A stretch of DNA of 64,000 nucleotides, taken from an uncultured Candidatus Saccharibacteria bacterium. Its GTDB lineage: Bacteria > Patescibacteriota > Minisyncoccia > Sungbacterales > HO2-52-23. The notes beneath the pieces are model-generated. The model did not search any database, was not told the origin of the DNA, and was given only the letters and a program-made list of their open reading frames with translations. Below are positions 2,671 to 59,557 of this stretch, in pieces. The DNA is taken from NCBI GenBank assembly GCA_964585475.1, contig CAZPDF010000001.1, forward strand, positions 1,441 through 65,440, read 5' to 3'. How positions within the stretch are numbered: position 1 is the first letter of the stretch; each line of letters begins with the position of its first letter. Both the position numbers and the translations under genes were made by a program.

Positions 2671-2751
2671 AAATTTTTAGTGCGGGGTCGAGACCGGCGC
2701 TTTAGACCACTCAGCCACGCCTCCGTTTTGTCCGGGACGAGACCGTCCCAT

Positions 2752-6573: not shown

Positions 6574-7095
6574 ATGAACACCGGAGAACAGAATAGTTTT
6601 CTTAAGGCATACGAAGATTTTTCAGACGCAATCTTCCGGTATTGCTATTTTCGGCTTTATCACCGGGAACTTGCGAAGGATCTCGCGCAGGAGACATTTA
6701 TAAAGACTTGGGAATACATTGCCAAGGGAGGGAAAGTGCAGAATATACGCGCGTTTTTATACCGCGTGGCGCGAAACCTCATTATCGATGAGTCAAGGAA
6801 AAAGCGGATGTTCTCTTTGGATTTATTGCGAGAAAAAGGGTTTGATCCGGCTGTATCCATGGAGGAGGAGATACAGTCCCACGCAGGCGTAAGGGATGTA
6901 ATGAAGTTTCTTTCGGATCTTGAGCCGAAATACCGCGAAGTAATTATCTTGCGCTTCGTTGAGGACATGTCACCCAAAGAAATTGCGGAGGCGATTGGTG
7001 AATCGGAAAATAATATATCGGTACGACTCCACCGCGCAATTAAAAAAGTGCGGGAGCTAATAGAGAAGGAATCTCGCCATCATGAATCCCGTTAG
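6574..7095 (+). CDS. RNA polymerase sigma-70 family ECF sigma factor
   Basis: 173 aa. Region 2 is DLAQETFIKTWEYI...FLYRVARNLIIDESRK. Region 4 HTH is MSPKEIAEAIGESENNISVRLHRAIKKV. Confidence 0.85.
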   Translation: MNTGEQNSFLKAYEDFSDAIFRYCYFRLYHRELAKDLAQETFIKTWEYIAKGGKVQNIRAFLYRVARNLIIDESRKKRMFSLDLLREKGFDPAVSMEEEIQSHAGVRDVMKFLSDLEPKYREVIILRFVEDMSPKEIAEAIGESENNISVRLHRAIKKVRELIEKESRHHESR

Positions 7096-7202
7096 AAGCC
7101 GCGATCGCATATCAAAAATAACAAATATCTCTATGTGCAACATTTTAGGTATAAATAATCCATGTAGATCGGATCACCTGATCGCGATCTGCTTCTAACG
7201 GG
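7088..7202. repeat. inverted repeat bridging the sigma stop codon and the downstream start codon
   Basis: cccgttagaagc (7088..7099, contains the TAG stop) and gcttctaacggg (7191..7202, ends 1 nt before the ATG at 7203) are perfect 12-bp complements. Further GATC-rich partial pairing lies inside. Confidence 0.6.
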
Positions 7203-9040: not shown

Positions 9041-9150
9041 TGGGCAGTGAAGGAATCGAACCCCGTAGCAGAACCTTCGGTTCGCTACGGGGCAGGCCTA
9101 CGGCCTTCGCGGTGTAAACGCGACGCTCTTCCGGGGATTCTTCTATTTCG
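9041..9150 (-). pseudogene. degenerate tRNA-Val(TAC)-like remnant with a hairpin inserted in the T arm
   Basis: Minus strand reads ...GGAAGAGCGTCGCGTTTACACCGCGAAGGCC..., which matches the anticodon arm of the neighbouring tRNA-Val. It then continues CCCCGTAGC-GAACCGAAGGTTCT-GCTACGGGG-TTCGATTCCTTC-ACTGCCC-A. The T-stem strand GAAGG is trapped in the loop of a 9-bp hairpin, and no matching 5' acceptor strand (GGGCAGT) is present. Confidence 0.4.
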
Positions 9151-9235: not shown

Positions 9236-9667
9236 TTATTCTCCGGTCCAGCTTAATATCCAGCGCGGCTTGATTTTTAAAGTCACTCGGGAGCCGGCCT
9301 CCAGCAGCTCCTTAAAATATTTCCCCGCTTTTTCTTTTGGCAAGTACTTATATGCGAGCCGTTCTAAAAGCTTTCCTTCCGGGTCGTCCTCCATGGTGAC
9401 ATCTCCGTAACCGACAACCGCAGCATAAGGTAGAGAGTGTTCAGCAATAGAAAACCCCGCCTTGGGATCCTCCTTTAAATTTCTCGTCTTTTTACGTCCC
9501 GGGGTGGTGCTGACCAAAAAGTTTTCTCCATCATACTCAAACCACACCGGAGTTACATGAGGATATCCTTCCGGCGTAATTGTCGCAATATCCATCAGGA
9601 CAGGACGCTGAAAAAATTTTTTCATTTGTTCCGGAGTCATCCCCGGAGTTACTGGATTTGAAGACAT
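9236..9667 (-). CDS. pyridoxamine 5'-phosphate oxidase family protein
   Basis: 143 aa. MDIATITPEGYPHVTPVWFEYDGENFLVSTTPGRKKTRNLKEDPKAGFSI is a typical PPOX/split-barrel pattern. The ATG lies 1 nt from the tRNA-Val(GAC) 3' end. Confidence 0.8.
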   Translation of the reverse strand: MSSNPVTPGMTPEQMKKFFQRPVLMDIATITPEGYPHVTPVWFEYDGENFLVSTTPGRKKTRNLKEDPKAGFSIAEHSLPYAAVVGYGDVTMEDDPEGKLLERLAYKYLPKEKAGKYFKELLEAGSRVTLKIKPRWILSWTGE

Positions 9668-9668
9668 A

Positions 9669-9740
9669 TGCGCGCTGAGGGGATTGAACCCCCGACCTAC
9701 TCTACGTCAAAGAGTCGCTCTACCACTGAGCTACGCTCGC
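9669..9740 (-). tRNA. tRNA-Val(GAC)
   Basis: GCGAGCG-TA-GCTCAGTGGTAGAGC-G-ACTCT-TTGACGT-AGAGT-AGGTC-GGGGGTTCAATCCCCTC-AGCGCGC-A. The D, anticodon and T arms are good. The acceptor stem has two non-Watson-Crick positions (A4:G69 and G7:A66). Confidence 0.75.
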
Positions 9741-9822
9741 AAGTGTAACGGGGCAAGCTACCGCCTAATTTGATGAATTAGGCGAGCCTCGCTCAGCTTT
9801 GATGAGCGGGAGCCAAACGCCC

Positions 9823-10791: not shown

Positions 10792-11562
10792 TTATGGGGA
10801 TTGAATTTTTATGGCGTACGCGTGTTGCTTAAGCGTTTGGGCCGCTGACTTCAGCTTTTCTTGGTGGTGAGGGAAAAGATCTTTTAGGATTTCGGGATCA
10901 AGCTCAAAAATGAGCGCTGCATGCCCCACTATCGGCGCGGCATATGAAGGGTACATTTCCAGCGTTGCTGAATTGGTTGGAACGAACTCGTCTTTTTCGG
11001 CGCGTATCTGAAGGAGCTTCCGGGGATTATTTTGGATATCCTCCCGGAGTTTTGCCAGCCATTTCGAGTCCGGTCGGATTTGGCGCGCGGCCTCATGCCA
11101 GAAGACGAAACGCGCAAGGGATGATCCTCGAAAAGGCGTGCCTGCGGTGACTACCTGGAAGTGCATAAGCTCCGGGTCGCGTGCTTGAGCGGCAAGGATT
11201 ATGAGTCCTCCCATGCTGTGCCCCAAGAACACGAGGTCTTTTTCAAGGTCAGTAAGCCGCAGGCCGTATTTTTGATGCAATCTCTCTTCTTGTTTCGTGA
11301 GAAATTTGTCAAAGCGTGCTGTGAGGGTATCAATGTCTTTTCTCGCCCAGCCGGTGTCGGCGATGACCACATTAAACCCCGCATTCCCCAGCCGCGCACG
11401 CAACGGAAGCATGACCGACGGAGTTCCTCCGAGGCCATAGGCCAGAATTATATTGGGCCTTGTCGGATCAAGCTCGTTTTCTGGAATTGGTATAAGGGAG
11501 CCCGGAAAAAGGAGCAGGAGATACGAGAAAATATAGACCGCTTCTTTAATCCACTCAAACAC
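10792..11562 (-). CDS. alpha/beta hydrolase (lipase/esterase-like)
   Basis: 256 aa with an N-terminal TM/signal segment, the nucleophile elbow FLGHSMGG, and a His near the C-terminus (VGHAAL). Confidence 0.75.
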   Translation of the reverse strand: MFEWIKEAVYIFSYLLLLFPGSLIPIPENELDPTRPNIILAYGLGGTPSVMLPLRARLGNAGFNVVIADTGWARKDIDTLTARFDKFLTKQEERLHQKYGLRLTDLEKDLVFLGHSMGGLIILAAQARDPELMHFQVVTAGTPFRGSSLARFVFWHEAARQIRPDSKWLAKLREDIQNNPRKLLQIRAEKDEFVPTNSATLEMYPSYAAPIVGHAALIFELDPEILKDLFPHHQEKLKSAAQTLKQHAYAIKIQSP

Positions 11563-11630: not shown

Positions 11631-11779
11631 CCACCCTAGGAGGTTGTCCCAAAACTATAAAAACAACACTTTCGTCATTCTGAGCGAAGCGAAGAATCTC
11701 GTATTTAAGCCATTTCTAAACAGTGGAGATTCTTCACAAAGTTCAGAATGACAGTTTTTAGACAGCCCCCTAGGGGTGG
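11631..11779. repeat. GTCATTCTGAGCG-AGCGAAGAATCTC nested hairpin repeat, copy 1
   Basis: Outer arms are ccaccctaggaggttgtc / gacagccccctaggggtgg. Inner arms are gtcattctgagcgaagcgaagaatctc (11674..11700) / gagattcttcacaaagttcagaatgac (11726..11752). The same core recurs at 49493..49621. Confidence 0.7.
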
Positions 11780-11788
11780 AAACTACAA

Positions 11789-11976
11789 TGGCCCCAATGG
11801 GATTCGAACCCATGTACTGGGCTCTTGCCCTCCCACTTTTTTGTTTGCCGCCACCGGGATTCGAACCCGGGTACCGGGCTTGAAAAGCCCGTGTCCTAGA
11901 CCAAGCTAGACGATGGCGGCGTCAAAAGTGGGAGGGTGAAAAAAGCCCATGTCCTAGGCCTCTAGACGATGGGGCC
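11789..11976 (-). other. interrupted (outer) tRNA-Glu-like gene enclosing tRNA-Glu 11846..11920
   Basis: Minus strand reads GGCCCCA-TC-GTCTAGAGGCCTAGGAC-A-TGGGC-TTTTTTCA-[CCCTCCCACTTTT-gac-inner tRNA-aacaa-AAAAGTGGGAGGG]-CAAGA-GCCCA-GTAC-ATGGGTTCGAATCCCAT-TGGGGCC-A. The acceptor, anticodon and T stems of the outer molecule are perfectly paired, and the D stem pairs with one G:U. Confidence 0.55.
11846..11920 (-). tRNA. tRNA-Glu(TTC)
   Basis: GCCGCCA-TC-GTCTAGCTTGGTCTAGGAC-A-CGGGC-TTTTCAA-GCCCG-GTAC-CCGGGTTCGAATCCCGG-TGGCGGC-A. Confidence 0.9.
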
Positions 11977-12083
11977 AAAATTAAGTTAAAAGCATAAAGT
12001 CAAAAGTTCAAAGTCAACGAACTAACTATATCAAAAATTTGGTAAAATTTCAAATGAAAAAACCCAACTCGACAAGAGTTAGG

Positions 12084-28568: not shown

Positions 28569-28749
<181 letters not shown>

Positions 28750-35388: not shown

Positions 35389-36069
35389 ATGATTTTTTTC
35401 GATAACGTTTCTAAAATCTATAACCATAATTCCGTCGCGTTGAAAAACGTGACTCTTCGGATTGAGCCGCGCGAATTTGTTTCCATCGTGGGTTCTTCCG
35501 GGGCCGGAAAAACAACGCTTTTGAAGCTTTTGATCAGGGAAGAGGAGCCGACCGACGGCAAAATTTATCTTGACGGTTTTGATATAACTATCGTTCCGAA
35601 AAGCGAGATTCATCACGTGCGCAGGCGCATTGGGATCGTATTTCAGGATTATAAATTGCTTCCAACCAAAACCGCCCATGAAAATGTCGCATTTGCCATG
35701 GAGGTGGCCGGAAGATCGGATGCGGAGATCGCCGAGGATGTTCCGCAGGCGCTGGAACTCGTCGGGCTTGCCGATAAGATTAATAATTTTCCACACCAGC
35801 TCTCCGGTGGAGAGAAACAGAGAGTAGCTATTGCGCGCGCTTTGGTCAATCGGCCGGACGTTATTTTGGCGGACGAGCCGACCGGAAATTTGGACCCCAT
35901 AAATACGTGGGAGATCATAAAACTTTTGCAGAAAATAAACATGCTTGATACGACGGTGGTCTTGGCCACGCACGACAAAGAAATTATCAACGCGATAGAC
36001 AAGCGGGTGGTGGTGCTGGACAAAGGGGAAGTAATATCGGATAAAGAAAAGGGGAAGTATTTGGTATAA
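35389..36069 (+). CDS. ftsE: cell division ATP-binding protein FtsE
   Basis: [24 protein letters not shown] and [12 protein letters not shown]. An ftsX gene follows downstream. Confidence 0.9.
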
Positions 36070-36209
36070 CGAATGTTTTTTCGGTACGCCTATCGCTTGC
36101 CCCGGCGAGGCAAGCTCGCTCCAGCGCTCGGTTTCGCTCTCCTCGCATACGCTCGGAACCGTGCCCGCTCAACCTCGCGAGGCCCTCAAAAACATTCGTT
36201 ATACCAAAT
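36059..36209. repeat. 151-nt element with perfect 22-bp terminal inverted repeats between ftsE and ftsX
   Basis: atttggtataacgaatgttttt (36059..36080, includes the ftsE TAA) and aaaaacattcgttataccaaat (36188..36209). The interior is GC-rich with internal hairpins (cttgcc-ccggcgag-gcaag). ORF 36073..36390 over it is not credible. Confidence 0.7.
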
Positions 36210-36223
36210 GAAGAAAGACAAAC

Positions 36224-43095: not shown

Positions 43096-43209
43096 GCCCA
43101 CGCACTAATTTCGTAAAGATGTTTATCTTATTGCGGTTAAACATTCGTGGTATCGCCTCCGGCTTACCTAGAGGCCAATAAATACTTATTGCTAAAATTA
43201 GTGCGGGGC
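43096..43209. repeat. CCCCGC-terminated long palindromic element
   Basis: Arms are gcccacgcactaattt / aaattagtgcggggc with one mismatch. The interior contains tcgcctccggctt, identical to 13 nt of the outer tRNA-like 3' end at 28737..28749. Confidence 0.6.
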
Positions 43210-43267
43210 ATAAGTTTTGTATCCAAAATTTCTTCGCTTAAGGGCTTTAAATTTTGGACAAAGCCTT

Positions 43268-44512
43268 ATGGATCACGAGGAAGCAAAAAAGCCAACCAAA
43301 TTTTTCGGACTTTCCCGGAACGTAATCTCCATGGGCGCGGTGAGTTTTTTAAACGATCTTTCCTCGGACATGATTTTTCCTTTTATTCCGATTTTTCTCA
43401 CAACGGTCCTTGGTGCCAGCGCTACATTTATCGGACTCATAGAGGGGATCGCGGATGCCACCGCCAGCATTTTGAAAATAGTTTCCGGCCGCCTCTCGGA
43501 TAAATGGAGGATTAGAAAACCATTTGCGGTTTTTGGCTATAGCTTGTCGGCGGCAGCAAAGCCCATTTTAGCTTTGGCTTCCGCACCCTGGCACGTTTTG
43601 GCAGTGCGGTTTTTGGATCGAGTGGGCAAAGGTACGCGCGACGCTCCGCGAGACGCGCTCCTTTCACTCTCGGCGGAGAAGCGGCATATCGGCCGTGCAT
43701 TCGGGTTCCACCGCGGAGCTGATACTTTAGGGGCGGCGCTCGGACCGCTGATCGCCTTTGCCGTTTTGCCATTTCTTGGAGGTGAGAGCGAGTCGGGGTT
43801 TCGCAATCTTTTTCTTCTCTCATTTGTAGCGAGCTTTTTTGCGGTACTTATTCTTAAGTTTTCGGTCCGTGAAGTTCGTAATAATATCGATGGCAAAGAA
43901 CCGCTTTTTCCGCCGAAATTTAGATTTAAGTATCTCGGCGTACCCTTTCTTATTTTCCTCGCTGCGGCAACTATTTTTTCTCTGGGAAAGGCCTCGGAGG
44001 CGTTTTTGCTACTCCGCGCGCAGGGACTGGGCGTTGCGATAATGCTTCTTCCGATAATTTATTTTGTGTATAACATCACTTTTGCTCTTTTCTCCACTCC
44101 TGCCGGTATGCTCTCGGATAAAATTGGGCACCGCAATACTTTTATGATCGGGATGCTTATTTTTTCCGGGACTTATTTTTTGTTCGCCCAAGCCACCTCG
44201 TCTCTTGCCATGTGGATTCTTTTCGCTGTCTACGGGTTTTATAGCGCATTTACCGAGGGAGTGGGGCGCGCCATAGTAGCGGATCTTGTGGAGGAAAAAT
44301 TCCGAGCAACCGCCTACGGAATGTACAGCGCCTTCACCGGTTTTGCGCTTCTGCCGGCAAGTCTGGTTTTCGGCATTTTGTGGGATCGCTTCGGGCCCAG
44401 CGTTTCATTCCAGTACGGCGCAATCCTCGGCCTTATCGCGTTCGTAATATTTCTTTTCCTGCGTTTGAAAAATCATCAGAAAGAGATGAATGCCGCATCA
44501 ACACGAAGCTAA
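43268..44512 (+). CDS. MFS transporter
   Basis: ORF track gives 43217..44512. I trimmed the start to the Met after the palindromic element. It has about 12 TM helices and the motif-A-like SGRLSDKWRIRKP. Confidence 0.8.
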   Translation: MDHEEAKKPTKFFGLSRNVISMGAVSFLNDLSSDMIFPFIPIFLTTVLGASATFIGLIEGIADATASILKIVSGRLSDKWRIRKPFAVFGYSLSAAAKPILALASAPWHVLAVRFLDRVGKGTRDAPRDALLSLSAEKRHIGRAFGFHRGADTLGAALGPLIAFAVLPFLGGESESGFRNLFLLSFVASFFAVLILKFSVREVRNNIDGKEPLFPPKFRFKYLGVPFLIFLAAATIFSLGKASEAFLLLRAQGLGVAIMLLPIIYFVYNITFALFSTPAGMLSDKIGHRNTFMIGMLIFSGTYFLFAQATSSLAMWILFAVYGFYSAFTEGVGRAIVADLVEEKFRATAYGMYSAFTGFALLPASLVFGILWDRFGPSVSFQYGAILGLIAFVIFLFLRLKNHQKEMNAASTRS

Positions 44513-45438: not shown

Positions 45439-45726
45439 ATGAAAAGAAAGTTTGATTATGCACTAGTTCTTGTTGAATGCCTCAAGAAAAGAAGCGGTGA
45501 ATTTATAGGCGTAAAGACGGTCGCGAAAGAATTTCGGCTTCCCGAAGCATACCTTGAGAAAGTGGCACAGGAGCTCAAGCGCGCCGGATGGCTTGAGGGG
45601 CGGAGAGGTGCTGGCGGAGGATATCGGCTTTTAAAGGATCCCGCCGCTGTTTCAGTGGAGAACCTGATCAATTTCTACGAGCCCGTTTACTCGTTTTGCC
45701 CGCTTCTTAGGGAGCTAAAAAAATGA
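45439..45726 (+). CDS. Rrf2-family transcriptional regulator (short, IscR/NsrR-like)
   Basis: FDYALVLVECLKKRSGEFIGVKTVAKEFRLPEAYLEKVAQELKRAGWLEGRRGAGGGYRL. It overlaps nifS by 4 nt. Confidence 0.8.
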   Translation: MKRKFDYALVLVECLKKRSGEFIGVKTVAKEFRLPEAYLEKVAQELKRAGWLEGRRGAGGGYRLLKDPAAVSVENLINFYEPVYSFCPLLRELKK

Positions 45727-47042
45727 GAGAAGTATACTTAGACCATGCCGCTACTACTTATTTGGACCCACGGGTAAAGGAAGCGATGGAGCCATATTGG
45801 ACGGAGGACTTTGGTAATCCATCAAGCTTGTATAGAGGCGGGAGGCGTGCCAAAGAAGCGTTGGATAAAGCGCGCGAAACCATTGCGCAGATTTTGAATT
45901 GCAAGCCCGAGGAGCTGATTTTTACAGGAGGAGGAACTGAGGCAATAAACTTGGCGATCTTTGGATCGGCTAAGCAATACGGACTCCCGTTCCAGACTAA
46001 GTCTGGAACGGATGGCAGACTTAGTCCGGAACGCAGGGGTAATCTCGTAACTTCAAAAATTGAGCATCATGCCGTCCTGCATAGCATGGAGGCCTTGGGC
46101 AAGGAGGGGTTTGAAATAACCCATCTTGATGTTGACGAATATGGGCTGGTCAACCCGGAGCATGTGAGAGAAGCAATCCGGCAGGACACGATTTTAGTTT
46201 CTATAATGTATGCGAATAACGAGATCGGGACGATCGAGCCGATCGAGGAAATAGGAAAAGTGATTAAAGAAGCGCGCGAGGCGCGAAAGAAGGAAGGAAA
46301 CGCGACTCCGATTTTTTTCCATACCGATGCTTGCCAGGCCGCAGGGGCACTGGATTTAGACGTCCAGAAACTAGGGCTAGATCTACTTGCGATCAACGGC
46401 TCAAAAATTTACGGGCCAAAAGGGGTGGGCTGCCTTTTTATCCGCAGAGGAGTGCGCGTTAAGCCCCTGATTTACGGCGGAGGACAGGAGAATAATTTGC
46501 GGTCCGGCACAGAAAATGTTCCGGGAATTATCGGTTTTGCGAAGGCCCTGGAACTTGCGCACATGGAACGAGAAAAAGAAAACGCTCGTCTCAGTGAATT
46601 GCGGGATTATCTTCTGGTACGGCTTCTAAAAGAAATTCCCAAAACGGTTCTCAACGGCCATCCAGCGAAGCGGCTTCCCAATAACATAAATGTGTCAGTG
46701 CTCGACATTGAAGGGGAGGCGGTTATTCTTTATCTGGATGCCAAAGGAATTTATGTTTCCACCGGATCCGCCTGCGCATCCACCAGCCTTGATCCCTCGC
46801 ATGTCATTTTGGCGATAGGCCGGCCGTATGAATACGCCCACGCGTCGCTGCGCTTTACGCTTGGTAGGAGAACTGCCAAAGAAGATCTGGATTATGTTAT
46901 GGAAGTTTTTCCTGGAGTTGTGGAGAAATTACGAAAAATTAGTCCCCTGCGAATAGAAGTAGGACAGATGACGGTGAGTCATCCGGAAGCATTTGCGGGG
47001 CAAGGGTCGAAAGTGAAAGTTGGAGGGAAGAATTATAAGTAA
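45723..47042 (+). CDS. nifS: cysteine desulfurase (NifS/IscS type)
   Basis: LDHAATT, FTGGGTEAINLAI, HHAVL, HTDACQAAG, INGSKIYGPKGVG (the PLP lysine), RSGTENVPGI and the active-site STGSACAS. Confidence 0.9.
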   Translation: MREVYLDHAATTYLDPRVKEAMEPYWTEDFGNPSSLYRGGRRAKEALDKARETIAQILNCKPEELIFTGGGTEAINLAIFGSAKQYGLPFQTKSGTDGRLSPERRGNLVTSKIEHHAVLHSMEALGKEGFEITHLDVDEYGLVNPEHVREAIRQDTILVSIMYANNEIGTIEPIEEIGKVIKEAREARKKEGNATPIFFHTDACQAAGALDLDVQKLGLDLLAINGSKIYGPKGVGCLFIRRGVRVKPLIYGGGQENNLRSGTENVPGIIGFAKALELAHMEREKENARLSELRDYLLVRLLKEIPKTVLNGHPAKRLPNNINVSVLDIEGEAVILYLDAKGIYVSTGSACASTSLDPSHVILAIGRPYEYAHASLRFTLGRRTAKEDLDYVMEVFPGVVEKLRKISPLRIEVGQMTVSHPEAFAGQGSKVKVGGKNYK

Positions 47043-47102
47043 AGGGCTTTCTCTAAATTTTCGAGTTCGTAGAACGAAGAAAATTTAGCTAGAAAACCTT
47101 TA

Positions 47103-47370
47103 CCGAGCACTCAATTTATTCTGCTATGTATTATGTCTATGTGATTCGTAATCGGAAGTCGCGGGAAACCTATATCGGTTATTCCGACGACTTGAAACGG
47201 AGGTTACGAGAACACAAGGATAAAAATCCGGAGCTTCTGTATTACGAAGCATACAAAAGCGAGAAGGATGCAAGGATACGGGAGAAAAAGCTGAAGCAGC
47301 GGGGGACAAAGCATCCGCTGGCTCAAAGAAAGATTGAAGTACAGTTTAGCAGAATAAATTGAGTGCTCGG
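47103..47370 (+). mobile_element. GIY-YIG gene cassette bounded by perfect 23-bp inverted repeats
   Basis: ccgagcactcaatttattctgct (47103..47125) and agcagaataaattgagtgctcgg (47348..47370) are exact reverse complements. The ATG follows the left repeat directly, and the stop codon lies inside the right repeat. Confidence 0.6.
47126..47362 (+). CDS. GIY-YIG nuclease superfamily small protein
   Basis: 78 aa. MYYVYVIRNRKSRETYIGYSDDLKRRLREH contains the GIY-(10)-YIG motif plus the conserved Arg and Glu. Confidence 0.8.
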   Translation: MYYVYVIRNRKSRETYIGYSDDLKRRLREHKDKNPELLYYEAYKSEKDARIREKKLKQRGTKHPLAQRKIEVQFSRIN

Positions 47371-47465
47371 TGCTCAATGCTGTTACCAAATTTTCTTCAC
47401 CGTTGGTTCGAAAATTTGGACATCATTGGCAAATAATAAAAAAGAGGGGCATGTCGCCCCTGAGT

Positions 47466-49424: not shown

Positions 49425-49492
49425 GGGAAATCACCCCGTCTTTCCCAATTTATCAGTAGACCAGCGTGCTTAATCCAGATTAGCATGTTAAT

Positions 49493-49621
49493 GAACTGGT
49501 AGCGAGTAAACCCACAAACGTCATTCTGAGCGTAGCGAAGAATCTCTATATTTGTGTCTAAGAGATCCTTCACTTCGTTCAGGATGACAGCTAGAAATGT
49601 CGTGTTACTCGCTACCAGTTC
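49493..49621. repeat. GTCATTCTGAGCG-AGCGAAGAATCTC nested hairpin repeat, copy 2
   Basis: Outer arms are gaactggtagcgagtaa / ttactcgctaccagttc. Inner arms are gtcattctgagcgtagcgaagaatctct (49520..49547) / agagatccttcacttcgttcaggatgac (49561..49588). It ends 6 nt before the ferredoxin ATG. Confidence 0.7.
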
Positions 49622-49627
49622 AATAGA

Positions 49628-49891
49628 ATGGATCAAGATCCAGCCGAAAATCTACAGGAATCCAAAAAACCCCTCAAGATAGGGAAGATTGTAGTTGATA
49701 GAAATTTGTGTATTGGCGCGGCATCCTGTATTGCCGTTGCTCCCGGAGTGTTCGAGCTTGATTCCGAAAATAAGGCAATCGTGTATAATGAAAAAGGAGC
49801 GGATGATGAGACCATACTTTTGGCCGCAAAGTCCTGCCCCACGCAAGCTATATTGGTGTTTGATGAGGAAGGCAATCAAATATTTCCTTAG
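49628..49891 (+). CDS. small single-cluster ferredoxin
   Basis: 87 aa. VVDRNLCIGAASCIAVAPGVFELD...AAKSCPTQAI. Confidence 0.8.
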   Translation: MDQDPAENLQESKKPLKIGKIVVDRNLCIGAASCIAVAPGVFELDSENKAIVYNEKGADDETILLAAKSCPTQAILVFDEEGNQIFP

Positions 49892-51384: not shown

Positions 51385-51477
51385 TAAGCCGACGATCTCT
51401 GACCGTTCGGTTTTTTATTTGTTTGTCCAAATTTTTGAGCAAGATGTGCGATGAAAATTTGGTTCACAAACAAATAA

Positions 51478-51625
51478 CCCCTCACCAATTTTGCCAAGTA
51501 TTACAGAATGGGGTCGATGGGTATACCCAATCGAGATCCACCCGCGAAGCGCGCGTGCCGAATAGGCACATCCCTAATGGGCGAAGCGTTTCGCTCTCTA
51601 CTACTTTGTAAAATTGGTGACGGGG
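51478..51625. repeat. CCCCGC-family long palindromic element (shares a core with 56430..56575)
   Basis: Arms are cccctcaccaattttgc / gtaaaattggtgacgggg. The interior contains cgcgcgtgccgaataggcacatccctaatgggcgaagcg, the reverse complement of the core in the clpB leader copy. Confidence 0.65.
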
Positions 51626-51639
51626 TTGATTTTAGAATC

Positions 51640-51667
51640 TTGACGAATTGATTCCCAGTTATATAAT
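51640..51667 (+). promoter_or_regulatory. sigma-70 promoter upstream of htrA
   Basis: TTGACG (51640..51645), a 16-nt spacer and TATAAT (51662..51667). It is followed by a ~200-nt hairpin-rich leader. Confidence 0.6.
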
Positions 51668-51873: not shown

Positions 51874-53133
51874 ATGGACGAGAACCAACCCACAACCCGG
51901 CAAATAGTGCTTTTTACAGTTGTTTTAAGTTTTATTGTCTCGATAATCGGGACTGTTTTGACTTTGGGAGTTTTTGGTCCGCTTTTTGGGGGGGACGAAG
52001 GGGGAGGGCCTATTCTTTTTAACCGTCCGAAGATTTTGGAAAAAATCACCGAGCGGGAAACCACCGAACGCGTTCTGCGGCAGGACGAGCTTGCGGTGAA
52101 AGTCGTGGAAGAAGCGTCTCCGGCAGTAGTCAGCATTATTGCTTCAAAAGACGTACCGGTAATTGAGCAATTTTTTACCGATCCCTTCGGGGACGACCCG
52201 GTTTTTAAGCAATTTTTTGGAGATCAGGGATCCGGCTTTCGTATTCCGCAGTTTCGGCAGAAGGGCACCGAGAAGCAAGAGGTTTCCTCCGGCACCGGCT
52301 TTATTGTCTCTTCGGACGGCCTCATTATTACGAATAAACACGTAGTGTCTGATCTTGAAGCGTCTTATACGGTTTTCATGAATGACGGTCGGCATCTGGG
52401 AGTGAAGATCTTGGCACGTGATCCGTTTCAGGACTTGGCGGTATTAAAAATTGAAGGCGGCAATTTTCCTTCGGTGCGGCTTGGCGATTCATCCCGAGTA
52501 AAAATCGGTCAGACCGCAATTGCGATCGGGAACGCCTTGGGCGAATTTAGAAACACGGTTTCCGTAGGCGTTATCTCCGGTCTCCATCGCTCGGTGGTGG
52601 CTTCCGGTGCTCCGGCCGGCCCCGAGACATTGCAGGAACTAATCCAGACCGATGCGGCCATAAATCCGGGCAATTCCGGCGGCCCGCTTCTTAATCTTTC
52701 GGGAGAAGTAATCGGGATTAATACCGCCATGGCGCAGGGCGCGGAGAACATCGGCTTTGCCATTCCGATAAATAAGGCGAAGCGTGATATAGAAAGTGTC
52801 CAAAAACAAGGAAAAATTGTGTATCCGCTTCTGGGAGTGCGCTACGTTCCCATTACCAAAGAGCTGGCCGAGAAAGATAAGTTGGGGCGGGATTACGGCG
52901 CGCTCTTGATTTCTAGCGCGAATGATCCGGCTATTGTTTCAGGTGGCCCGGCAGATAAAGCCGGACTCAAAGAAAAAGATATACTTCTTGAGCTAAACGG
53001 CGAGCGGATTGACGCGGAGCATACGCTTGCCTCTCTCATTCAAAAATATCAGCCGGGAGACGAGGTGACGTTTAAAGTATTCCGCGACGGAAAGGAATTT
53101 GAGGCGAAGGTAAAATTTGATGAGAGAAAATGA
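51874..53133 (+). CDS. htrA: HtrA/DegP-family serine protease with PDZ domain
   Basis: ORF track gives 51841..53133 (GTG start). I prefer the ATG at 51874. It has a TM anchor and the catalytic residues His (ITNKHVV), Asp (DLAVLKI) and Ser (GNSGGPLLN), with a C-terminal PDZ domain. Confidence 0.9.
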   Translation: MDENQPTTRQIVLFTVVLSFIVSIIGTVLTLGVFGPLFGGDEGGGPILFNRPKILEKITERETTERVLRQDELAVKVVEEASPAVVSIIASKDVPVIEQFFTDPFGDDPVFKQFFGDQGSGFRIPQFRQKGTEKQEVSSGTGFIVSSDGLIITNKHVVSDLEASYTVFMNDGRHLGVKILARDPFQDLAVLKIEGGNFPSVRLGDSSRVKIGQTAIAIGNALGEFRNTVSVGVISGLHRSVVASGAPAGPETLQELIQTDAAINPGNSGGPLLNLSGEVIGINTAMAQGAENIGFAIPINKAKRDIESVQKQGKIVYPLLGVRYVPITKELAEKDKLGRDYGALLISSANDPAIVSGGPADKAGLKEKDILLELNGERIDAEHTLASLIQKYQPGDEVTFKVFRDGKEFEAKVKFDERK

Positions 53134-53252
53134 TTTATCATGCGCGAGAGCGTGTCCGGCCCCCTTCTTTAGCGAACCCAACTTGGAAACCCCGTTTCCA
53201 AGTTATGCGGGACTGGCGAAAGCATAAATGAAAGATCAAAAAACCAGCCGCA

Positions 53253-53627
53253 TCAATCGGGCTGGTTTTGGTTTGCGCGGTTTTTCCAGAGCGTAAAACA
53301 TCCGCAGAGAAAAGAGATAAGAAAAAATCCATACATGAGCTGCGCCCCCAGCGGATGTTCAAGTACTTGAAAGGTAAATGCAATCACTATGACGCCAACT
53401 GAATACCCCAGTACTGACCCGCAGTTGATGCCAAAGATATGTCGCCGGAAAGTCATCGCCGCCAAGTAGCCGACCAGAAGCGATATGAGCATCCACCCCA
53501 TTAAGATTAGCCGACTTAGCACTTCAAAATTATTGTGGATTAGCACGATTCCGCCTAAATAGGGAATGGGGATCAAAATAAGACATATTCCCGCCAGACG
53601 CCTTTTCCATATGACGGTCATATTCAT
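53253..53627 (-). CDS. polytopic membrane hypothetical protein
   Basis: 124 aa with about 4 TM helices. It overlaps the upstream gene by 4 nt. Confidence 0.6.
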   Translation of the reverse strand: MNMTVIWKRRLAGICLILIPIPYLGGIVLIHNNFEVLSRLILMGWMLISLLVGYLAAMTFRRHIFGINCGSVLGYSVGVIVIAFTFQVLEHPLGAQLMYGFFLISFLCGCFTLWKNRANQNQPD

Positions 53628-54358
53628 CGCAATCCTCCGGTGCCACCCCTTAACCGCATTTTGAACGTTTCATTGTCTCGCCAGGAGACCAGTTTTTCCT
53701 GCAGGCCTTTATAGATCAGCCGATCGAATTTTTTCCCTTTGAAAACGATGAGATAATGATCCGCAAAATCAAGCGCGGGAATTTCTTCCAGCTTTTTCGC
53801 ATCGCGGAAGAAGAGATGAATCTTGGCCCTCCATAGCCAGAGAGCGACACTCTCGGGCAAGGGACTATGCATAATAGAAAGGAGCATGGAGGTATCATTG
53901 AAGTCGGCGATCGAGCGCTCTAGAAATTCAAAGATCCTTCTGCCTTCTCTATCCAGAAATCCTTCCGGCACAAATCCGCCCTTTATCATTTTTTCTTCAG
54001 CTTGAGCAAGATCGGCCAGTGTTCGCATCTCGCCAAGATTTTGCAGAAACGGCCTCCAGGTGTCGAGCCCCTCACTTTGGAAATGGATCTCCGGCCGTTC
54101 TTCGATGAGGCGGTCGCAAGTTACACCGACGCACTCTTTAGAGTATTTTGCGAGCGCGCGGGCGGTTTCTTGGCAAATGCGTGAAGGAGCATAGAAAACT
54201 TTATCAAAAGGATATTGATCAAATTCCATCCGCACGAGATCTTTTAGATATCGTTCTCCTTTATCCTCTTTTTTTAGTCCGGCATCGGGGTCGTTTGAGG
54301 CGCGTTCCCCAAAACGCATGAGACTCACGCCTATAAGCTGGTCGGAGTTATTCGCCAT
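53624..54358 (-). CDS. hypothetical protein (degenerate histidine-phosphatase-like N-terminus?)
   Basis: 244 aa. SLMRFGERA sits where the RHGE motif of the histidine phosphatase family would be, but with Phe in place of His. The family call is weak. Confidence 0.55.
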   Translation of the reverse strand: MANNSDQLIGVSLMRFGERASNDPDAGLKKEDKGERYLKDLVRMEFDQYPFDKVFYAPSRICQETARALAKYSKECVGVTCDRLIEERPEIHFQSEGLDTWRPFLQNLGEMRTLADLAQAEEKMIKGGFVPEGFLDREGRRIFEFLERSIADFNDTSMLLSIMHSPLPESVALWLWRAKIHLFFRDAKKLEEIPALDFADHYLIVFKGKKFDRLIYKGLQEKLVSWRDNETFKMRLRGGTGGLR

Positions 54359-54415
54359 AGTTCCCCACGTTTTTCTGGAACTGGATATAGTATAAATATG
54401 ATGTCGGCTTTGGTC

Positions 54416-54560
54416 AACCCCGCACCTTTTATGCGCTAGGCCACCTCGCGAGCACCGGATTCTTATACCTATTCGGCACTTACTCTATACAGAGTTAATC
54501 TCGGCATACAGTGTACCTGTGAGGTGGCTGGTGCGATGCGGCGCATAAAAGGTGCGGGGT
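54416..54560. repeat. CCCCGC-terminated long palindromic element
   Basis: Arms are aaccccgcaccttttatgcgc / gcgcataaaaggtgcggggt. Second-tier arms are ggccacctc / gaggtggc. It is flanked on both sides by tcaa. Confidence 0.7.
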
Positions 54561-54850: not shown

Positions 54851-55106
54851 TCTGGCGAGTTTCCCGGACTGCCGTAGCAAATTTTCCTTCACTTAGGCCC
54901 TTAGCAGATAGTTAAACTTTGGACAGGCAACTCGCTTGTCTTTTTGTATTTTGTTTCCTGCGATATCCACACGCCTTCCAAGAGCCGGTTGAGGCAATGG
55001 TTGGAAACGCTGGCGTGGGTTCCGAAACGCGCCGAAGCAAGAATCCCGCAGGGGCCTTAAAGTTTTCCAGAGACAGGCAGTCGAAATCTGGCTGCCTTTT
55101 TATTTA

Positions 55107-55247
55107 CCCCGTTACAAGAAAGCCACGGGTGTAAGCCCGTGGATGAATTGCGCCGTTCCTGCCAGCCTTAAGATAAAATGCCACGAGCGTAAGCTCGTGG
55201 TCGCCTTGTAACGGGGTTTACCGGGAAACCCCGCACGAAGTGCGGGG
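55107..55247 (+). ncRNA. candidate structured RNA / cis-regulatory leader
   Basis: A 12-bp stem (ccccgttacaag / cttgtaacgggg) encloses two near-identical hairpins: ccacgggtgtaagcccgtgg (55123..55142) and ccacgagcgtaagctcgtgg (55181..55200). They differ by a compensatory G:C to A:T change. The hairpin ccccgcac-gaa-gtgcgggg follows at 55229..55247. ggggttt-accggg-aaacccc offers a mutually exclusive pairing. Confidence 0.4.
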
Positions 55248-55923: not shown

Positions 55924-56268
55924 ATGGCAAGATCAAAGATTGTGGTTAAATACTTCAGCGACCCGAACTTCAGAGAGTACCACGTGAGCAAGGAGATCTC
56001 TCTGTCTCACGAGATTTTCAAGAGACCGCTCCGCCCCCGATCCAATGAGTATCTGAAAAGGGTCGGCAAGGTAGGCGCAGAGCTCGTGAGGGATATCATC
56101 GCAGTGCCGGGTGTCGCTTCGGTCGGCATCGAGTCCTACCACCTGTGGGTGTCGAAGGGACATGCCTTCGAGTGGGCGGAGATCGAGTCCTATGTAGTTA
56201 ACGCCCTCAAGCAGGCAGTCGGTACGGATGTCGAGGTCGTTGAGCCAACGCCCTTCCCTTACCGTTAA
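55924..56268 (+). CDS. Nfu/NifU N-terminal-like domain protein
   Basis: ORF track gives 55885..56268. I prefer the ATG at 55924, which lies 6 nt after AGGAGG. DIIAVPGVASVGIESYHLWVSKGHAFEWAEIESYVVNALK resembles the Nfu_N pattern (GV..V.....FITV.K.....W). Confidence 0.55.
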   Translation: MARSKIVVKYFSDPNFREYHVSKEISLSHEIFKRPLRPRSNEYLKRVGKVGAELVRDIIAVPGVASVGIESYHLWVSKGHAFEWAEIESYVVNALKQAVGTDVEVVEPTPFPYR

Positions 56269-56382
56269 GTTGTCGGGTTAGAATACAAGTGGCGTTCAGG
56301 CCCGCCGCTCGTGTTCGCCCCGCCGAAACAGCCAGTCGTAACTAAGGGGAGGCCGCAAGGTCCCCCCTTCCTAATTATGCTC

Positions 56383-56411
56383 TTGATTTCCGTAAAAAAT
56401 TTTGGTATACT
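56383..56411 (+). promoter_or_regulatory. sigma-70 promoter for clpB
   Basis: TTGATT (56383..56388), a 17-nt spacer and TATACT (56406..56411), about 220 nt upstream of the clpB ATG. Confidence 0.55.
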
Positions 56412-56429
56412 AGAGGTATTAGTAGCCTT

Positions 56430-56575
56430 CCCGCCCTAATTTTGCTAGATAAAACAAGCGCAAGACGCTTCGCCCGTTGAGGGATGTGCCTATCCGGCAC
56501 GCGCGTCTTGTTAGGATTTCCGGGTGTGTACTTTGCTGGGGTTTATACTTTTTGATAGGGCAAAATTAGAGCGGG
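56430..56575. repeat. CCCCGC-family long palindromic element inside the clpB leader
   Basis: Arms are cccgccctaattttgc / gcaaaattagagcggg with one mismatch. The core is acgcttcgcccgttgagggatgtgcctatccggcacgcgcg, enclosed by the stem caagacgc / gcgtcttg. Confidence 0.65.
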
Positions 56576-56630
56576 ATGGTCATAATTTCAGCGAAAATTT
56601 GTTCGCTGAAACTCCAAATTTTCGGAAATT

Positions 56631-59306
56631 ATGCCACCTTTTCAACAATTCACCATCAAAGCCCAAGAGGTCTTGAAAAAAGCGCATGACCTTGCGCTGG
56701 AAAGATCACATCATCAAATTGATGTGCTGCATTTGCTTACCGGATTGATCTTGCAGGAGGAGGGGACGGTGGACGCGATTTTGGAAAAACTTGAGATAGA
56801 TGTTTCCATGATTGCTGACCGGCTTCTGGAAACTCTGGACTCGATGCCTCGCGGGGCAATGATCGCGACCCCTCTCGGGCAGGTCTATTTGACGCAGGAT
56901 TTGGCAAAAGTGATCGAGCAGGCGCATAGGGAAGCGGCGCAATTGAAAGATGAATTTATTTCAACCGAGCATCTCTTCTTGGCATTGGTTGAGGTACCTT
57001 CCAGGGCCAAAGAAATGCTTGAGCGGGAGGGCCTGAATAAAGAGATGATTTTACGCGCTTTAGCCGAGCTTCGAGGCGGGCAGAGGATTACCGACCCCGA
57101 ACCAGAAACTAAGTATAATGTCATTGAAAAATACGCGCGTAACTTGACGCGCCTGGCGCGTCAGGAAAAACTCGACCCCGTGATTGGGCGCGAGAACGAA
57201 ATCAGGAGAGTCATGGAAGTTTTATCCCGCCGCACGAAGAATAACCCTGTCCTTATCGGAGAAGCGGGGGTGGGGAAAACAGCCATTGCCGAGGGATTGG
57301 CGCAGAGGATAGTTTCCGGCGACGTGCCGGAAACCCTGAAGGATAAGGACCTTATTTCCGTGGATCTTGCCGCAATTGTAGCGGGCACCAAATACAGGGG
57401 AGAATTTGAGGATCGGGTGAAAGCGATTTTACGCGAGATCGAGAGAGCGCAGGGTAAATACATAATTTTTATTGACGAGCTGCATACGATTGTCGGCGCC
57501 GGGGCCGCGGAAGGCGCGATTGACGCCTCCAACATGTTAAAACCGGCGTTAGCGCGCGGAGAACTCCATGCTATTGGCGCTACCACCCTCAAAGAATATC
57601 AGCGCTATATCGAGCGCGATCCGGCCCTCGCTCGCCGCTTCCAGCCGGTATACGTGGATGAGCCAAGCGTGGAAGACACCGTTGCGATACTGCGGGGGCT
57701 CAAACCAAAATATGAGGCGCATCACGGGATTAAGATCACCGATGGCGCTATTGTGGCTGCCGCCAATCTTTCGTCGCGCTACATAACTGATCGTTTTCTG
57801 CCGGATAAAGCGGTGGACCTAGTTGACGAGGCATCATCTTCCCTGCGTCTTGAGATGGACAGTCTACCCAAAGATCTGGATGACACGCGGAGGAGAATTA
57901 TGAAGCTTGAAATTGAAAAGGAGGCCATCAAAAAGGAGATTGACAGAAAAAGTAAGGAGCGGTTGAAAAAACTTGTGAGTGAAATTGCGGAGCTGCAAGG
58001 TGGCACGCAAGCCATGGAAGAAGCGTGGAAGCAGGAGAAAGAAACCATTGTCGGGATCCGCGCCATGAAAAAAGAGTTGGATACTGCGCGTCAGGAATCG
58101 GATATTGCCGAGAGAGCGGGAGAATTCGGGAAAGTAGCCGAACTTCGCTACGGAAAAATTCCGCAGACCGAGACCAAGCTTGACGAGGCCGAAAAACTTC
58201 TTAAGAAACTTCAGAATTCTCGGCATCTTGTGCGCGGGGAAGTTACGGAGGAAGATATCGGTTCCGTGGTCGCCCGCTGGACCGGAATTCCGGTAACGAA
58301 GATTCTTGAAACCGAAGCCGTGCGCTTGACGAAGATTGAGGAAGAGCTTAAAAAGCGAGTCATCGGGCAGGGAGAGGCCGTTGAGAAAATTGCGAATGCG
58401 GTGCGCCGCTCAAGAGCCGGCATTGCCGAGGAAAATCGTCCCATCGGCTCCTTCATATTCTTGGGCCCCACCGGAGTAGGAAAAACCGAGCTTGCCAAAA
58501 CCCTGGCTGAGTTTTTATTTTCGGACGAGAAGGCCTTGATTCGCGTGGATATGTCCGAATACATGGAGCGACACACGGTTTCCAAATTCATTGGCTCTCC
58601 TCCCGGATACGTAGGGTATGAGGAGGGGGGCCAATTGACCGAGCTTGTGAAGCATCGGCCCTATTCGGTAATACTTTTTGATGAGATAGAAAAAGCGCAT
58701 CCGGAGGTCTTCAATGTTCTTTTGCAGATTCTGGATAACGGGCGTTTGACCGATGCCAAAGGCCGCATGATTAATTTCAAAAACACGATAATTATAATGA
58801 CTTCCAATATCGGCGGGGAGTATGCGCAAGAGATGGGGAAAATAGGATTTGCGAGCGGAGACGAGGATACCAGGGAACGGAAAGAAGGCGACATGAAAGA
58901 TAAGATAAGAAAGGCCCTTGAGCGTCATTTCCGGCCTGAGTTTTTGAATCGCCTGGATGAAATAATAATTTTCTCCTCGCTTACGCCGGAAGTCATCCAA
59001 AAAATTGTTGAAATACAACTCGAGCGCGTGGTTAAGCGTATGGCCGGGCGCGAAATATCTGTTTCATTCACCGGAGAGGTCAAGAAATTTATCGCGGAGA
59101 AGGGTTACGACCCGACTTACGGAGCGCGGCCCCTGAAGCGCGCGATCCAGACGCATATTCTTGATATGCTCGCGCAGGAAATTATTGCGGGGAAAATCGG
59201 GGAAGGGGATGCGGTTTTGGTTGACGCCAAAGACGGGAAGGCGGTTTTTGGGAAAGGAGTTAAAAGAGTTGGAGGGAAAAGAGCGGTGGTAGTGGCGAAA
59301 AGTTAA
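56631..59306 (+). CDS. clpB: ATP-dependent chaperone ClpB
   Basis: 891 aa with a Clp_N repeat, NBD1 ([23 protein letters not shown]), a long coiled-coil middle domain, NBD2 ([26 protein letters not shown]) and [10 protein letters not shown]. Confidence 0.95.
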
Positions 59307-59557
59307 GGCGCGGTTTCTTCTTTATTGGGCAGGCCTCGGCATATCGCCTCGAAAAGACGCTCGCCGCGCTTAAACTTTTAAACATTTAAACTTTCCCGGC
59401 TCGCTAAGGTTCCGGCCGCCATGAATTAGTTACCAGTTACCATTTGTTATTCGGGCGGCCTCCATATTCTTTTCTCGGCAACATGCCTCGACCTGCGCGA
59501 TTGTTCGACCGCGCCAAACCATCCGTCTATGTTAATAAACTAGGATAGAAGTAAGAG

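Follow-up and report, generated by a model that had tools for sequence, protein, structure and literature searches.

The window analysed here, a stretch of 64 kb taken as a whole, contains a series of long-stem hairpins, of which the one at 54416–54560 had been flagged by a sequence-only reading as a member of a family of eight palindromic elements, the others lying at 2561–2687, 4037–4142, 43096–43209, 51478–51625, 56430–56575, 60887–60999 and 62556–62689. All eight hairpins are present at these coordinates, and each folds as a rod closed by its own two ends. Their fold z-scores against dinucleotide shuffles range from -3.9 to -8.5, with 0–1 of 200 shuffles equally stable, and a scan for 16-nt arms spaced 60–220 nt apart detected 18 long-range hairpins in the window, as opposed to 0–3 per shuffled window. 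The family nevertheless proved larger than eight, as we identified a further arm (2863–2881), cassettes containing tRNA-Glu, tRNA-Thr, tRNA-Val and a GIY-YIG nuclease gene, and an empty hairpin (9061–9092), and the window holds more than 15 palindromic cassettes. The source is a groundwater bacterium with a tiny genome: ClpB, HtrA and GatB assign the window to Patescibacteria, and the nearest HtrA and GatB homologues (~70–77% identity) have Candidatus Sungbacteria as their named source. Comparison loci fetched from other genomes and contigs are denoted below by numbers with the prefix L (L002, L114 and so on).

The cassettes have a common anatomy. Their ends are terminal inverted repeats of 13–25 bp, consisting of a clamp of three to four C residues followed by an A/T-rich inner part, most commonly CCCCGC-N-C-Y-AA-W-TTT. 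Between the arms lies nothing, a tRNA gene, an RNA of one of the three classes (A, B or C) described below, or a gene for a 78-amino-acid GIY-YIG nuclease, and the insertions are found in intergenic DNA, at gene ends and in single-stranded loops of tRNA genes. The arm consensus proposed for the eight elements stands for six of them, which carry CCC(C)GC-N-C-Y-AA-W-TTT, whereas those at 4037 and 54416 have the clamp alone, and the CCCCGC...GCGGGG termini after which the family had been named occur in exact form in only about half of the copies. The extended arm CCCCGCACTAAAATTT, allowing up to three mismatches, has 7 matches in the window against 0.98 expected, a number reached by none of 100 shuffles. 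The CCCCGC hexamer by itself is not enriched (57 occurrences versus 47 ± 6.6 expected), and neither is HIP1 (GCGATCGC) in the window, for which reason a cyanobacterial origin was rejected.

The flagged cassette at 54416–54560 has perfect arms of 19–20 bp (CCCCGCACCTTTTATGCGC / GCGCATAAAAGGTGCGGGG) and a second helix (GCCACCTC/GAGGTGGC), and its fold z-score is -7.2 on the + strand and -8.5 on the - strand. TCAA does lie on both of its flanks, as had been pointed out, but this is not a general feature, since a comparable 4-nt repeat is found only at 62556 (TAAA). A Logan contig (L120) is identical to the window over 52644–54558, where it ends, and independently reproduces the hairpin; a second Logan contig is identical to the window over 56257–62306. 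No homologue of the 54416 cargo was found among the fetched loci. We considered it as a member of class A, with which it has GTGCCGAATAGG in common, but the class A covariance model (R1) does not recognise it. The second clamp-only cassette (CCCCGC/GCGGGG), at 4037–4142, has a fold z-score of -4.5 and a cargo which we could not classify. On the - strand, the arms of the 54416 and 62556 elements can supply -35-like boxes to neighbouring genes, at 54417–54389 and 62564–62537, respectively.

The interiors had been described as mostly unrelated, with the exception of a core shared by 51478–51625 (+) and 56430–56575 (-). This core, of ~50 nt and in opposite orientation, is real (local alignment score of 68 versus a null maximum of 25), but the elements at 43096 and 60887 share a core too and each class has homologues in other genera. 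Judged by their sequences, the interiors fall into at least three predicted structured-RNA classes which are conserved across Candidatus Sungbacteria genera. When searched against Rfam 15 at the gathering threshold, cargoes and whole hairpins matched only tRNAs, and the only extra matches on the elements at E-values up to 10 were sub-threshold ones on the tRNA-Ser cassette.

Class A has seven members from six genomes or contigs, two of them in the window. The cassette at 51478–51625 (+), which together with an adjoining sub-terminal module (51417–51472; see below) occupies 51417–51625, lies upstream of an htrA promoter-like site (51640–51667) and scores 133.5 bits with the class A model. The cassette at 56430–56575 (-; 56430–56636 with a degenerate module at 56582–56636) scores 120.1 bits and is placed between a promoter-like site at 56383–56411 (+) and the clpB ATG at 56631. 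The five relatives, which have the same core and the same kind of arms, come from a syntenic locus of a metagenome-assembled genome (L002), three metagenome contigs found by pattern scan (L107, which equals L108, L112 and L113) and the complete genome CP066690 (L114:6723–6870). RNAalifold predicts from the seven sequences a 16-bp closing stem, a 9-bp P1, a GNGC-GAAUA-GCNC hairpin and an invariant CCC-loop-GGG hairpin, and 96.4% of cells in this structure are paired. The claim that the stem enclosing the core covaries held up, and is reinforced by the five homologues; P1 takes the forms GCGAAGCGC/GCGCTTCGC, GCAAAGCGC/GCGCTTTGC and CAAGACGC/GCGTCTTG. Eight pairs are changed on both sides, whereas column shuffles gave 3.4 ± 1.3 such pairs and never reached eight in 500 trials, and slid partners gave 0–2. 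This supports the proposed functional RNA in the case of class A; coming from seven related sequences, this covariation is suggestive and not proof. A covariance model built from the seven members found no further member in 412 kb scanned, and matched the class B element at 43096 weakly, via the arms alone (E 0.026).

The four members of class B are 43096–43209 (-; 43096–43268 with its module at 43211–43268, identified by the shared core and the module profile), 60887–60999 (+; 60827–60999 with its module at 60827–60884, E 2.3e-12), L084:4090–4200 and L085:3809–3918, and the core common to the two window copies reads GTAAGCCG-N-AGGCG-W-TACC. Class C has two members, 62556–62689 (+) and L115:7268–7398, both flanked by TAAA on both sides. 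The 62556 element gives the DUF2905 open reading frame (ORF; 62658–62900, - strand) its last 10 codons and, as had been noticed, its stop codon, and the Pfam match of this ORF stops at residue 70 of 80.

Two observations concern the stems of these classes. A single bulged nucleotide lies 4–5 bp from the end of the closing stem, the majority of class A members having it in their 3' arm and the two class C members in their 5' arm; it is seen in the arms of 51478/51625, 62556/62689, L002, L107, L112, L114 and L115, and looks like a putative strand-specific recognition feature. A gene for a protein with a NYN domain (a PIN-like RNase) at 59666–60457 (- strand) adjoins the class B cassette at 60887, and another NYN-domain protein gene lies beside gatB at L119:11559–12035. 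The NYN protein is a possible candidate for a nuclease processing the stems.

Many cassettes are accompanied, on one or both sides, by a sub-terminal module, a ~55-nt AT-rich hairpin of the form TTTGTCCAAAWTTT-N14-19-GAAGAAAWTTTGGTTACAAA which ends 4–9 nt outside the arm, has a TACAAA-like box 6–7 nt before it, and is found on one side of class A and B elements. A profile of ten examples gave 12 matches with E < 1e-3 in Sungbacteria loci, and all 12 were followed by an arm within 4–9 nt. In L113 and L114 a hairpin of other sequence occupies the module position. A scan of viral contigs for the module gave only chance matches in coding regions. The module was rejected as an independent insertion target, because every strong match is joined to an arm, and as a sigma-70 promoter, because it has no -35 box, runs against the direction of the tRNA cargo of the Ser nest described below and is convergent around the GIY-YIG cassette; a sigma-70 scan detects only the degenerate copy, at 56618–56645.

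The GIY-YIG cassette itself occupies 47043–47433 (+), with 25-bp perfect inverted repeats (ACCGAGCACTCAATTT...) at 47102–47126 and 47347–47371 bounding the cassette proper (47102–47371), the 78-amino-acid nuclease ORF at 47126–47362 (PF01541, E 1e-10) and modules on both sides, at 47043–47099 (+) and 47377–47433 (-). As a possible autonomous partner of the other cassettes, it has related arms and the same modules, is present in single copy and does not belong to a known transposase class. Small proteins consisting only of a GIY-YIG domain are very common in Patescibacteria. Cassettes also occur without cargo, as hairpins of 30–40 nt. One of 32 nt, CCCCGTAGC...GCTACGGGG (9061–9092, - strand), lies in the T-arm of a tRNA-Val(TAC) remnant (9097–9131), another of 30 nt with TTCA/CGGG ends lies in a tRNA T-arm at L117:20782–20811, and at L116:10848–11019 two convergent modules flank an empty hairpin of ~40 nt (the empty site being 10910–10954).

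The clearest view of how cassettes are inserted comes from tRNA genes. The tRNA-Ser cargo that had been recognised in the element at 2561–2687 (-) is an intact tRNA-Ser(CGA) gene (2583–2671), between arms CCCCGCACTAAAAATTT / AAATTTTAGTGCGGGG followed by CAAG; what had been missed, and what contradicts the statement that all copies are intergenic, is that the element is inserted after nucleotide 35/36, in the anticodon loop of another, disrupted tRNA-Ser(CGA) gene (B; 2408–2724, - strand). On that strand the 5' side of the outer gene runs up to the arm as ...GCGCCGGTCTCGA, and its 3' side resumes after arm-CAAG as AAACCGGC...AGAGGTTCAAATCCTCTCGCCTCCG. The 5' half of B lies at 2688–2724 and its 3' part at 2408–2556, the variable arm containing a second structured insertion, X (2445–2547). 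Gene B is in turn the cargo of an older cassette (2396–2737, - strand; arms TCCCGGACAAAAC / GTTTTGAACGGGA), which is adjoined by an AT-rich sub-terminal module (2333–2394, + strand; nhmmer E 2.8e-12) and has its insertion point behind the CTCG (nucleotide 35) of a tRNA-Ser gene that is older again, A (5' part 2847–2864, 3' part 2284–2314). A further tRNA-Ser 5' half (2882–2920) and a copy of the left arm (CCCCGCACTAAAAATTTGG, 2863–2881) follow at 2863–2920 (-). The nest at 2284–2920 is therefore three deep, A containing B and B containing C, the cassette at 2561.

We read the history of the nests from orthologous loci around gatB in relatives. An uninterrupted relative of the tRNA-Ser gene is found at L115:5000–5088, and L117 has a one-level nest orthologous to A containing B, with the same arms, TTGCGA linker and module, whereas in the window the B cargo has been invaded by C and by insert X. 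The innermost tRNA, C, is more similar to the outermost remnant, A, than to the middle gene, B, A and C having the stretches TGCCAGAGTGG and AATGGGACGGTCTCG in common. Two allele types of tRNA-Ser(CGA) seem to have replaced each other in turn.

Insert X is present in two structured copies of ~100 nt on the - strand, one in the variable arm of Ser B (2445–2547) and one in the D-loop of Ser A (2753–2848). Its layout comprises a GGGCGAAA..TTTCGC hairpin, a GGG-9-bp stem enclosing TGCGAACGT-CCC, and TGGGGTTTGCC..GGCAA. The 9-bp stem covaries between the copies (CCGACT/AGTCGG versus AAATTT/AAATTT), and X has no Rfam match. A related hairpin, GGGCGAAACGAT...ATCGTTTCGCGGG, lies upstream of the tRNA-Val(TAC) gene of L117.

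Similar nests involve other tRNAs. At 11789–11976 (-), a cassette (11828–11936; arms CCCTCCCACTTTT) carrying a tRNA-Glu gene (11846–11920) lies within the anticodon loop of a resident tRNA-Glu gene, whose halves are at 11937–11976 and 11789–11827; at the junctions ...TTTT of the resident gene is followed by TTCA-arm...arm-CAAG and then by A. Outside the anticodon stem the outer tRNA-Glu matches the uninterrupted gene at L115:8669–8741, and the inner one resembles the L114 allele. At 28569–28749 (+), a cassette (28604–28705; arms CCGTTAGAAA) with a tRNA-Thr gene (28618–28691) interrupts a tRNA-Thr gene which is decaying, and at 9641–9754 (-) a tRNA-Val(GAC) gene (9668–9741) has flanking arms (GCCCCGTTACACT / AGTAACTCCGGGG), with a fragment in front that resembles the 5' end of an earlier tRNA-Val gene. 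L114 and L115 contain further nests, in which tRNA-Val(TAC) genes are interrupted in their anticodon loops and tRNA-Val(GAC) genes in their D-loops. When the inner tRNAs were masked, ARAGORN reported the outer scaffolds as genes with 'introns' at 2407–2725, 11788–11977, 28569–28749 and L115:5239–5425. Flanking stems of at least 10 bp were found only on the Ser, Glu and Thr genes of the window among the 106 tRNAs of the first 81 loci, and at least three of the seven tRNA genes called by ARAGORN in the window (again Ser, Glu and Thr) sit within the wreck of a predecessor. The outer genes range from otherwise intact (Glu and the L115 Val) to clearly decayed (Thr, Ser A and the L114 Val). Nests recur in four assemblies that were made independently, a closed genome (CP066690) among them, and are therefore not chimeras.

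The junctions in these nests follow rules. All anticodon-loop insertions break the gene after nucleotide 35, the other sites in tRNA genes being the D-loop and the T-arm. The Glu and three Val insertions have the form N32–35/TTCA-arm...arm-CA(A/G)G/N38, so that the insert replaces nucleotides 36–37 and a normal loop cannot be regained by any excision; of these ends, the Ser cassette retains CAAG. Insertions in D-loops carry the inverse termini, CTTG or CCTG-arm...arm-TGAAG, and the termini are consistent within each genome, CAAG occurring with CTTG in L115 and CAGG with CCTG in L114. Being common to cassettes with different arms and cargo, these 4-nt termini argue, at the level of sequence, for a putative common enzyme acting on DNA. 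Nesting is also strictly cognate, a tRNA cassette lying inside a tRNA gene of the same identity in at least nine of nine cases. We also observed, at L064:2508–2650, a stem-flanked tRNA-Thr(CGT) gene followed 25 nt on by a duplicate of its own 3' part which starts exactly at the anticodon stem; this duplicate is either a different (integrase-like) scar or a variant of the nests.

Several comparisons between loci bear on mobility. L002 is syntenic with the window over 43–59 kb, and the orthologue of the gene at 45723–47042 is followed by a class A cassette in L002 and by the GIY-YIG cassette in the window, while neither L002 nor L082 has a class A copy upstream of htrA or clpB. The class C copies of the window and of L115 lie in different contexts, and the 62556 cassette has overwritten the 3' end of the DUF2905 ORF. 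At orthologous tRNA sites, L115 has uninterrupted Glu and Ser genes where the window has nests, L117 being intermediate for Ser. Because the interrupted outer genes cannot be restored by removal of the insert, and the older ones are decaying, it is presumably the inner tRNA that does the job.

We think it probable, from this evidence, that the elements form a lineage-specific family of palindromic mobile cassettes of Candidatus Sungbacteria, resembling miniature inverted-repeat transposable elements (MITEs) and repetitive extragenic palindromic (REP) doublets forming hairpins (REPINs), which carry RNA cargo and include self-compensating invaders of tRNA genes. Among the three possibilities originally offered, MITE-like elements are the best supported, while regulatory hairpins or terminators are not favoured. 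Invasion would be self-compensating in that the inner tRNA takes over from the disrupted outer gene. The arms would pair in the transcript or in single-stranded DNA, insulating the fold of the cargo, and could offer RNase III, P or Z a place from which to trim the ends; the stems of 13–25 bp are long enough for RNase III, and processing of the arms by this enzyme is plausible, if putative. Movement may be driven in trans by a nuclease through its recognition of the palindromic ends, a role for which the GIY-YIG protein is the sole candidate seen. Copying to new sites might proceed by homing-like break repair, and homology within the tRNA halves would then ensure that cargo and target stay cognate.

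We put forward only tentatively that the tRNA-gene invaders undergo a gene-drive-like replacement cycle in a reduced bacterial genome. A cassette would home into the loop of an essential single-copy tRNA gene, destroying it, and supply a divergent allele of the same tRNA from its own hairpin, so that the host could not lose the cassette. Successive invasions would produce tRNA genes nested like Russian dolls, such as the Ser locus, in which type A contains B and B contains a type-A-like C. The same ends and modules may also shuttle non-coding RNAs and the minimal GIY-YIG nuclease that would drive the system.

A number of points weigh against a family of mobile cassettes. Among the ~70 ORFs of the window, the ~35 that were scanned include no transposase, recombinase or reverse transcriptase, and the GIY-YIG ORF occurs once in ~1.5 Mb of fetched loci, its role as the enzyme being a guess. 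There is no consistent target-site duplication, the 4-nt repeats at 54416 and 62556 being the only ones, and the tRNA junctions show replacement of nucleotides 36–37, not duplication. Exact-protein look-ups returned only near-identical contigs with the same elements, hence no strain-level presence/absence polymorphism, and a search with the DUF5667 protein, which evolves too fast, gave no useful relatives. The relatives have at most ~77% protein identity, making empty intergenic sites unalignable, and exact boundaries are therefore known only inside tRNA genes. A MITE that is purely selfish does not usually have cargo conserved across genera, and such conservation is explained equally well by RNA genes which are inherited vertically and move now and then. 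The covariation in class A fits folding of RNA and of single-stranded DNA alike and cannot separate the two, and the types of arm mismatch (7 G-T versus 12 A-C across 18 elements), tried as an indicator of the RNA strand, gave no strand signal. Finally, the model does not account for acquisition of a tRNA by a cassette or for the constant match of cargo and target, and selection against lethal non-cognate insertions could give such a match without any targeting.

An alternative possibility is that these are vertically inherited small-RNA and tRNA genes whose long leader-trailer stems are RNase III-type processing or stability signals and have nothing to do with mobility, the shared stem sequence reflecting one processing enzyme or binding protein. 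Compensatory changes kept across genera in classes A, B and C would be expected of such genes, stems abutting intact tRNAs with 3–6 unpaired nucleotides are as found in processing substrates, and the class-specific single bulge 4–5 bp from the stem end resembles a protein recognition feature. We nevertheless regard this as unlikely, given that stem-flanked tRNAs lie within the loops of cognate tRNA genes which are uninterrupted in relatives, that empty hairpins lie in tRNA T-arms, that a protein-coding GIY-YIG cargo has the same kind of arms and modules, and that copies are non-orthologous and one has overwritten the end of the DUF2905 ORF. A processing role of the arms at the RNA level can hold together with mobility at the DNA level.

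The position of the anticodon-loop insertions raises the question of whether the cassettes could be a new kind of bacterial tRNA intron, in which an endonuclease would recognise the stem beside the anticodon stem and the outer halves would be joined by ligation, the locus yielding two tRNAs and the remaining hairpins being excised RNAs of the same system. After RNase P/Z had freed the inner tRNA, the outer pieces would remain annealed through the arms, similar to the split tRNAs of Nanoarchaeum, and apart from the insertion there is no damage to the outer tRNA-Glu or to the outer tRNA-Val(TAC) of L115. Moreover, the break after nucleotide 35 is the site of the 35/36 group I introns (PMC13011429). 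However, no deletion gives a 7-nt loop with the right anticodon, as the Glu and Val genes keep nucleotides 32–35 and 38 and have TTCA...CA(A/G)G in place of 36–37; manual pairing found no bulge-helix-bulge (3-nt bulge, 4-bp helix, 3-nt bulge) in the Ser, Glu or Val junctions; no group I intron (Intron_gpI) or ribozyme model matched at E-values up to 10; the Thr, Ser A and B and L114 Val outer genes are decaying or further invaded; and insertions are found in D-loops and T-arms too. We therefore consider an intron quite improbable.

Very improbable, in our view, are cis-regulatory hairpins (attenuators, terminators or thermosensors) serving the stress genes htrA and clpB. This idea draws on the position of both class A copies of the window upstream of these genes and on the promoter-like sequence at 56383–56411 (9/12, a match to the consensus only), which would place 56430–56575 in the clpB leader, yet the two copies are oppositely oriented relative to the downstream genes and the best htrA promoter-like site (11/12) is downstream of 51478–51625. 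In addition, class A copies in relatives lie beside unrelated genes, none being upstream of htrA or clpB, and family members occur in every orientation, between divergent genes, in tRNA genes and at ORF ends. That the hairpins are chance GC-clamped structures or assembly artefacts of no common origin is hardly credible, for although 4037 and 54416 share the 6-nt clamp alone and CCCCGC is not enriched, the arm consensus (7 versus 0.98), the hairpin count (18 versus 0–3) and eight significant fold z-scores all exceed chance, and homologous elements and nests are present in independent NCBI, ENA, JGI and Logan assemblies.

The window contains additional hairpins outside the classes described above. 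Long-stem intergenic hairpins with other arm types lie at 7083–7207, 55103–55220, 36057–36211 and 49484–49630; the arm types include CCCGTTAGAAGC and CCCCGTTACAAG, which resemble the arms around tRNA-Thr and around tRNA-Val in relatives. That at 36057–36211, between ftsE and ftsX, occupies the intergenic site at which L116 has its empty module-flanked hairpin. Copies of a GTCATTCTGAGCGAAGCGAAGAATCTC-type palindromic repeat at 11674–11752, 49520–49600 and L084:9726–9990 belong to a different family of short repeats, which are also nested in larger hairpins. At 16851–16922 (- strand), Rfam calls a tRNA (42 bits) that is not reported by ARAGORN; the call overlaps a long hairpin (16876–16994; arms GTCCTCGCTTACCAAA / TTTGGTAAGCGAGAAA) and is followed by a strong terminator. 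The region 16851–16994 may be another disrupted or unusual tRNA-like gene.

REPINs, which are REP doublets mobilised by REP-associated tyrosine transposases (RAYTs), are among the closest known kinds of element (PMC3116915, PMC3337134). Like REPINs, the cassettes are ~100-nt non-coding hairpin units with conserved inverted-repeat ends and a less conserved middle, mostly intergenic, with pairing kept by compensatory change and mobilisation presumed to occur in trans by a single-copy enzyme. In contrast, REPIN arms are short palindromes with a GTAG-type head, while cassette arms are not self-complementary and start with CCC(C); the spacers between them consist neither of conserved structured RNAs nor of tRNAs, nothing in REPINs corresponds to the sub-terminal module of the cassettes, and REPINs are not known in tRNA loops or as carriers of replacement genes. 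The Y1_Tnp family (RAYT, Y1/HUH) had no match in the ~35 window ORFs scanned. Correia elements of Neisseria and Rickettsia palindromic elements are palindromic insertions of 100–150 bp with terminal inverted repeats which can settle within or beside genes and alter ORF ends or transcripts, and Correia transcripts are cut by RNase III. In these families, however, the interior is conserved, being derived from a single master copy, and the target duplication is a defined one (TA for Correia), whereas the cassettes have shared ends, unrelated interiors and no consistent duplication.

A preference for tRNA genes is seen in Dada, fish DNA transposons specific for tRNA, snRNA and 5S rRNA genes (PMC8869645). 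Insertion inside tRNA genes, with hot spots near the anticodon arm and the D-arm, is common to Dada and the cassettes, and the flanking target of Dada is often swapped for a fixed 'ancestral' sequence, comparable to the TTCA...CA(A/G)G of the cassettes. Dada elements are nevertheless eukaryotic and kilobase-sized, encode their own transposase, generate duplications of 6–7 bp, depend on multicopy targets and do not bring a substitute for the gene that they hit. In Patescibacteria, group I introns are reported to be enriched at an unusual site of tRNA genes, position 35/36 (PMC13011429), and share with the cassettes the phylum, the insertion point and the fact that the interrupted genes are missed by standard tRNA finders. 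As ribozymes of more than 200 nt, these introns splice themselves out and leave a restored tRNA, whereas the cassettes match no intron model, cannot be removed to give a normal loop and bring their own tRNA.

The GIY-YIG cassette recalls free-standing or intron-borne homing genes in having a small nuclease gene exactly in the middle of a palindrome, with a palindromic site also found empty (L116), which is the arrangement expected of a gene that homes into its own target and disrupts it. Known GIY-YIG homing enzymes have a DNA-binding domain and more than 200 amino acids, unlike the window ORF, which at 78 amino acids comprises the catalytic domain only and would have a homing role by analogy. 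Integron attC sites, which form cassette arrays beside intI, were rejected, as the arms lack R''/R' cores (RYYYAAC ... GTTRRRY) in order, the elements are scattered between housekeeping genes and an integrase was not seen.

None of these closest kinds combines shared palindromic ends, interchangeable functional RNA cargo and cognate tRNA replacement, and in full-text literature searches neither nested tRNA genes nor elements of this type turned up as described for Patescibacteria. The tRNA-replacement cycle stands a realistic chance of being new. The genomes of Patescibacteria are of ~1 Mb and are thought to hold very little mobile DNA. Classes A, B and C represent three candidate structured RNAs, present across genera and without an Rfam family, and the GIY-YIG cassette suggests a testable candidate activity for the small GIY-YIG-only proteins of Patescibacteria. 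For annotation, our results are a warning that outer tRNA halves and nested genes mislead tRNA finders and tRNA-based estimates of completeness. If confirmed, the replacement cycle would explain horizontal turnover of tRNA alleles in Patescibacteria, and would give selfish elements a novel route into an essential single-copy gene, one that the host survives.

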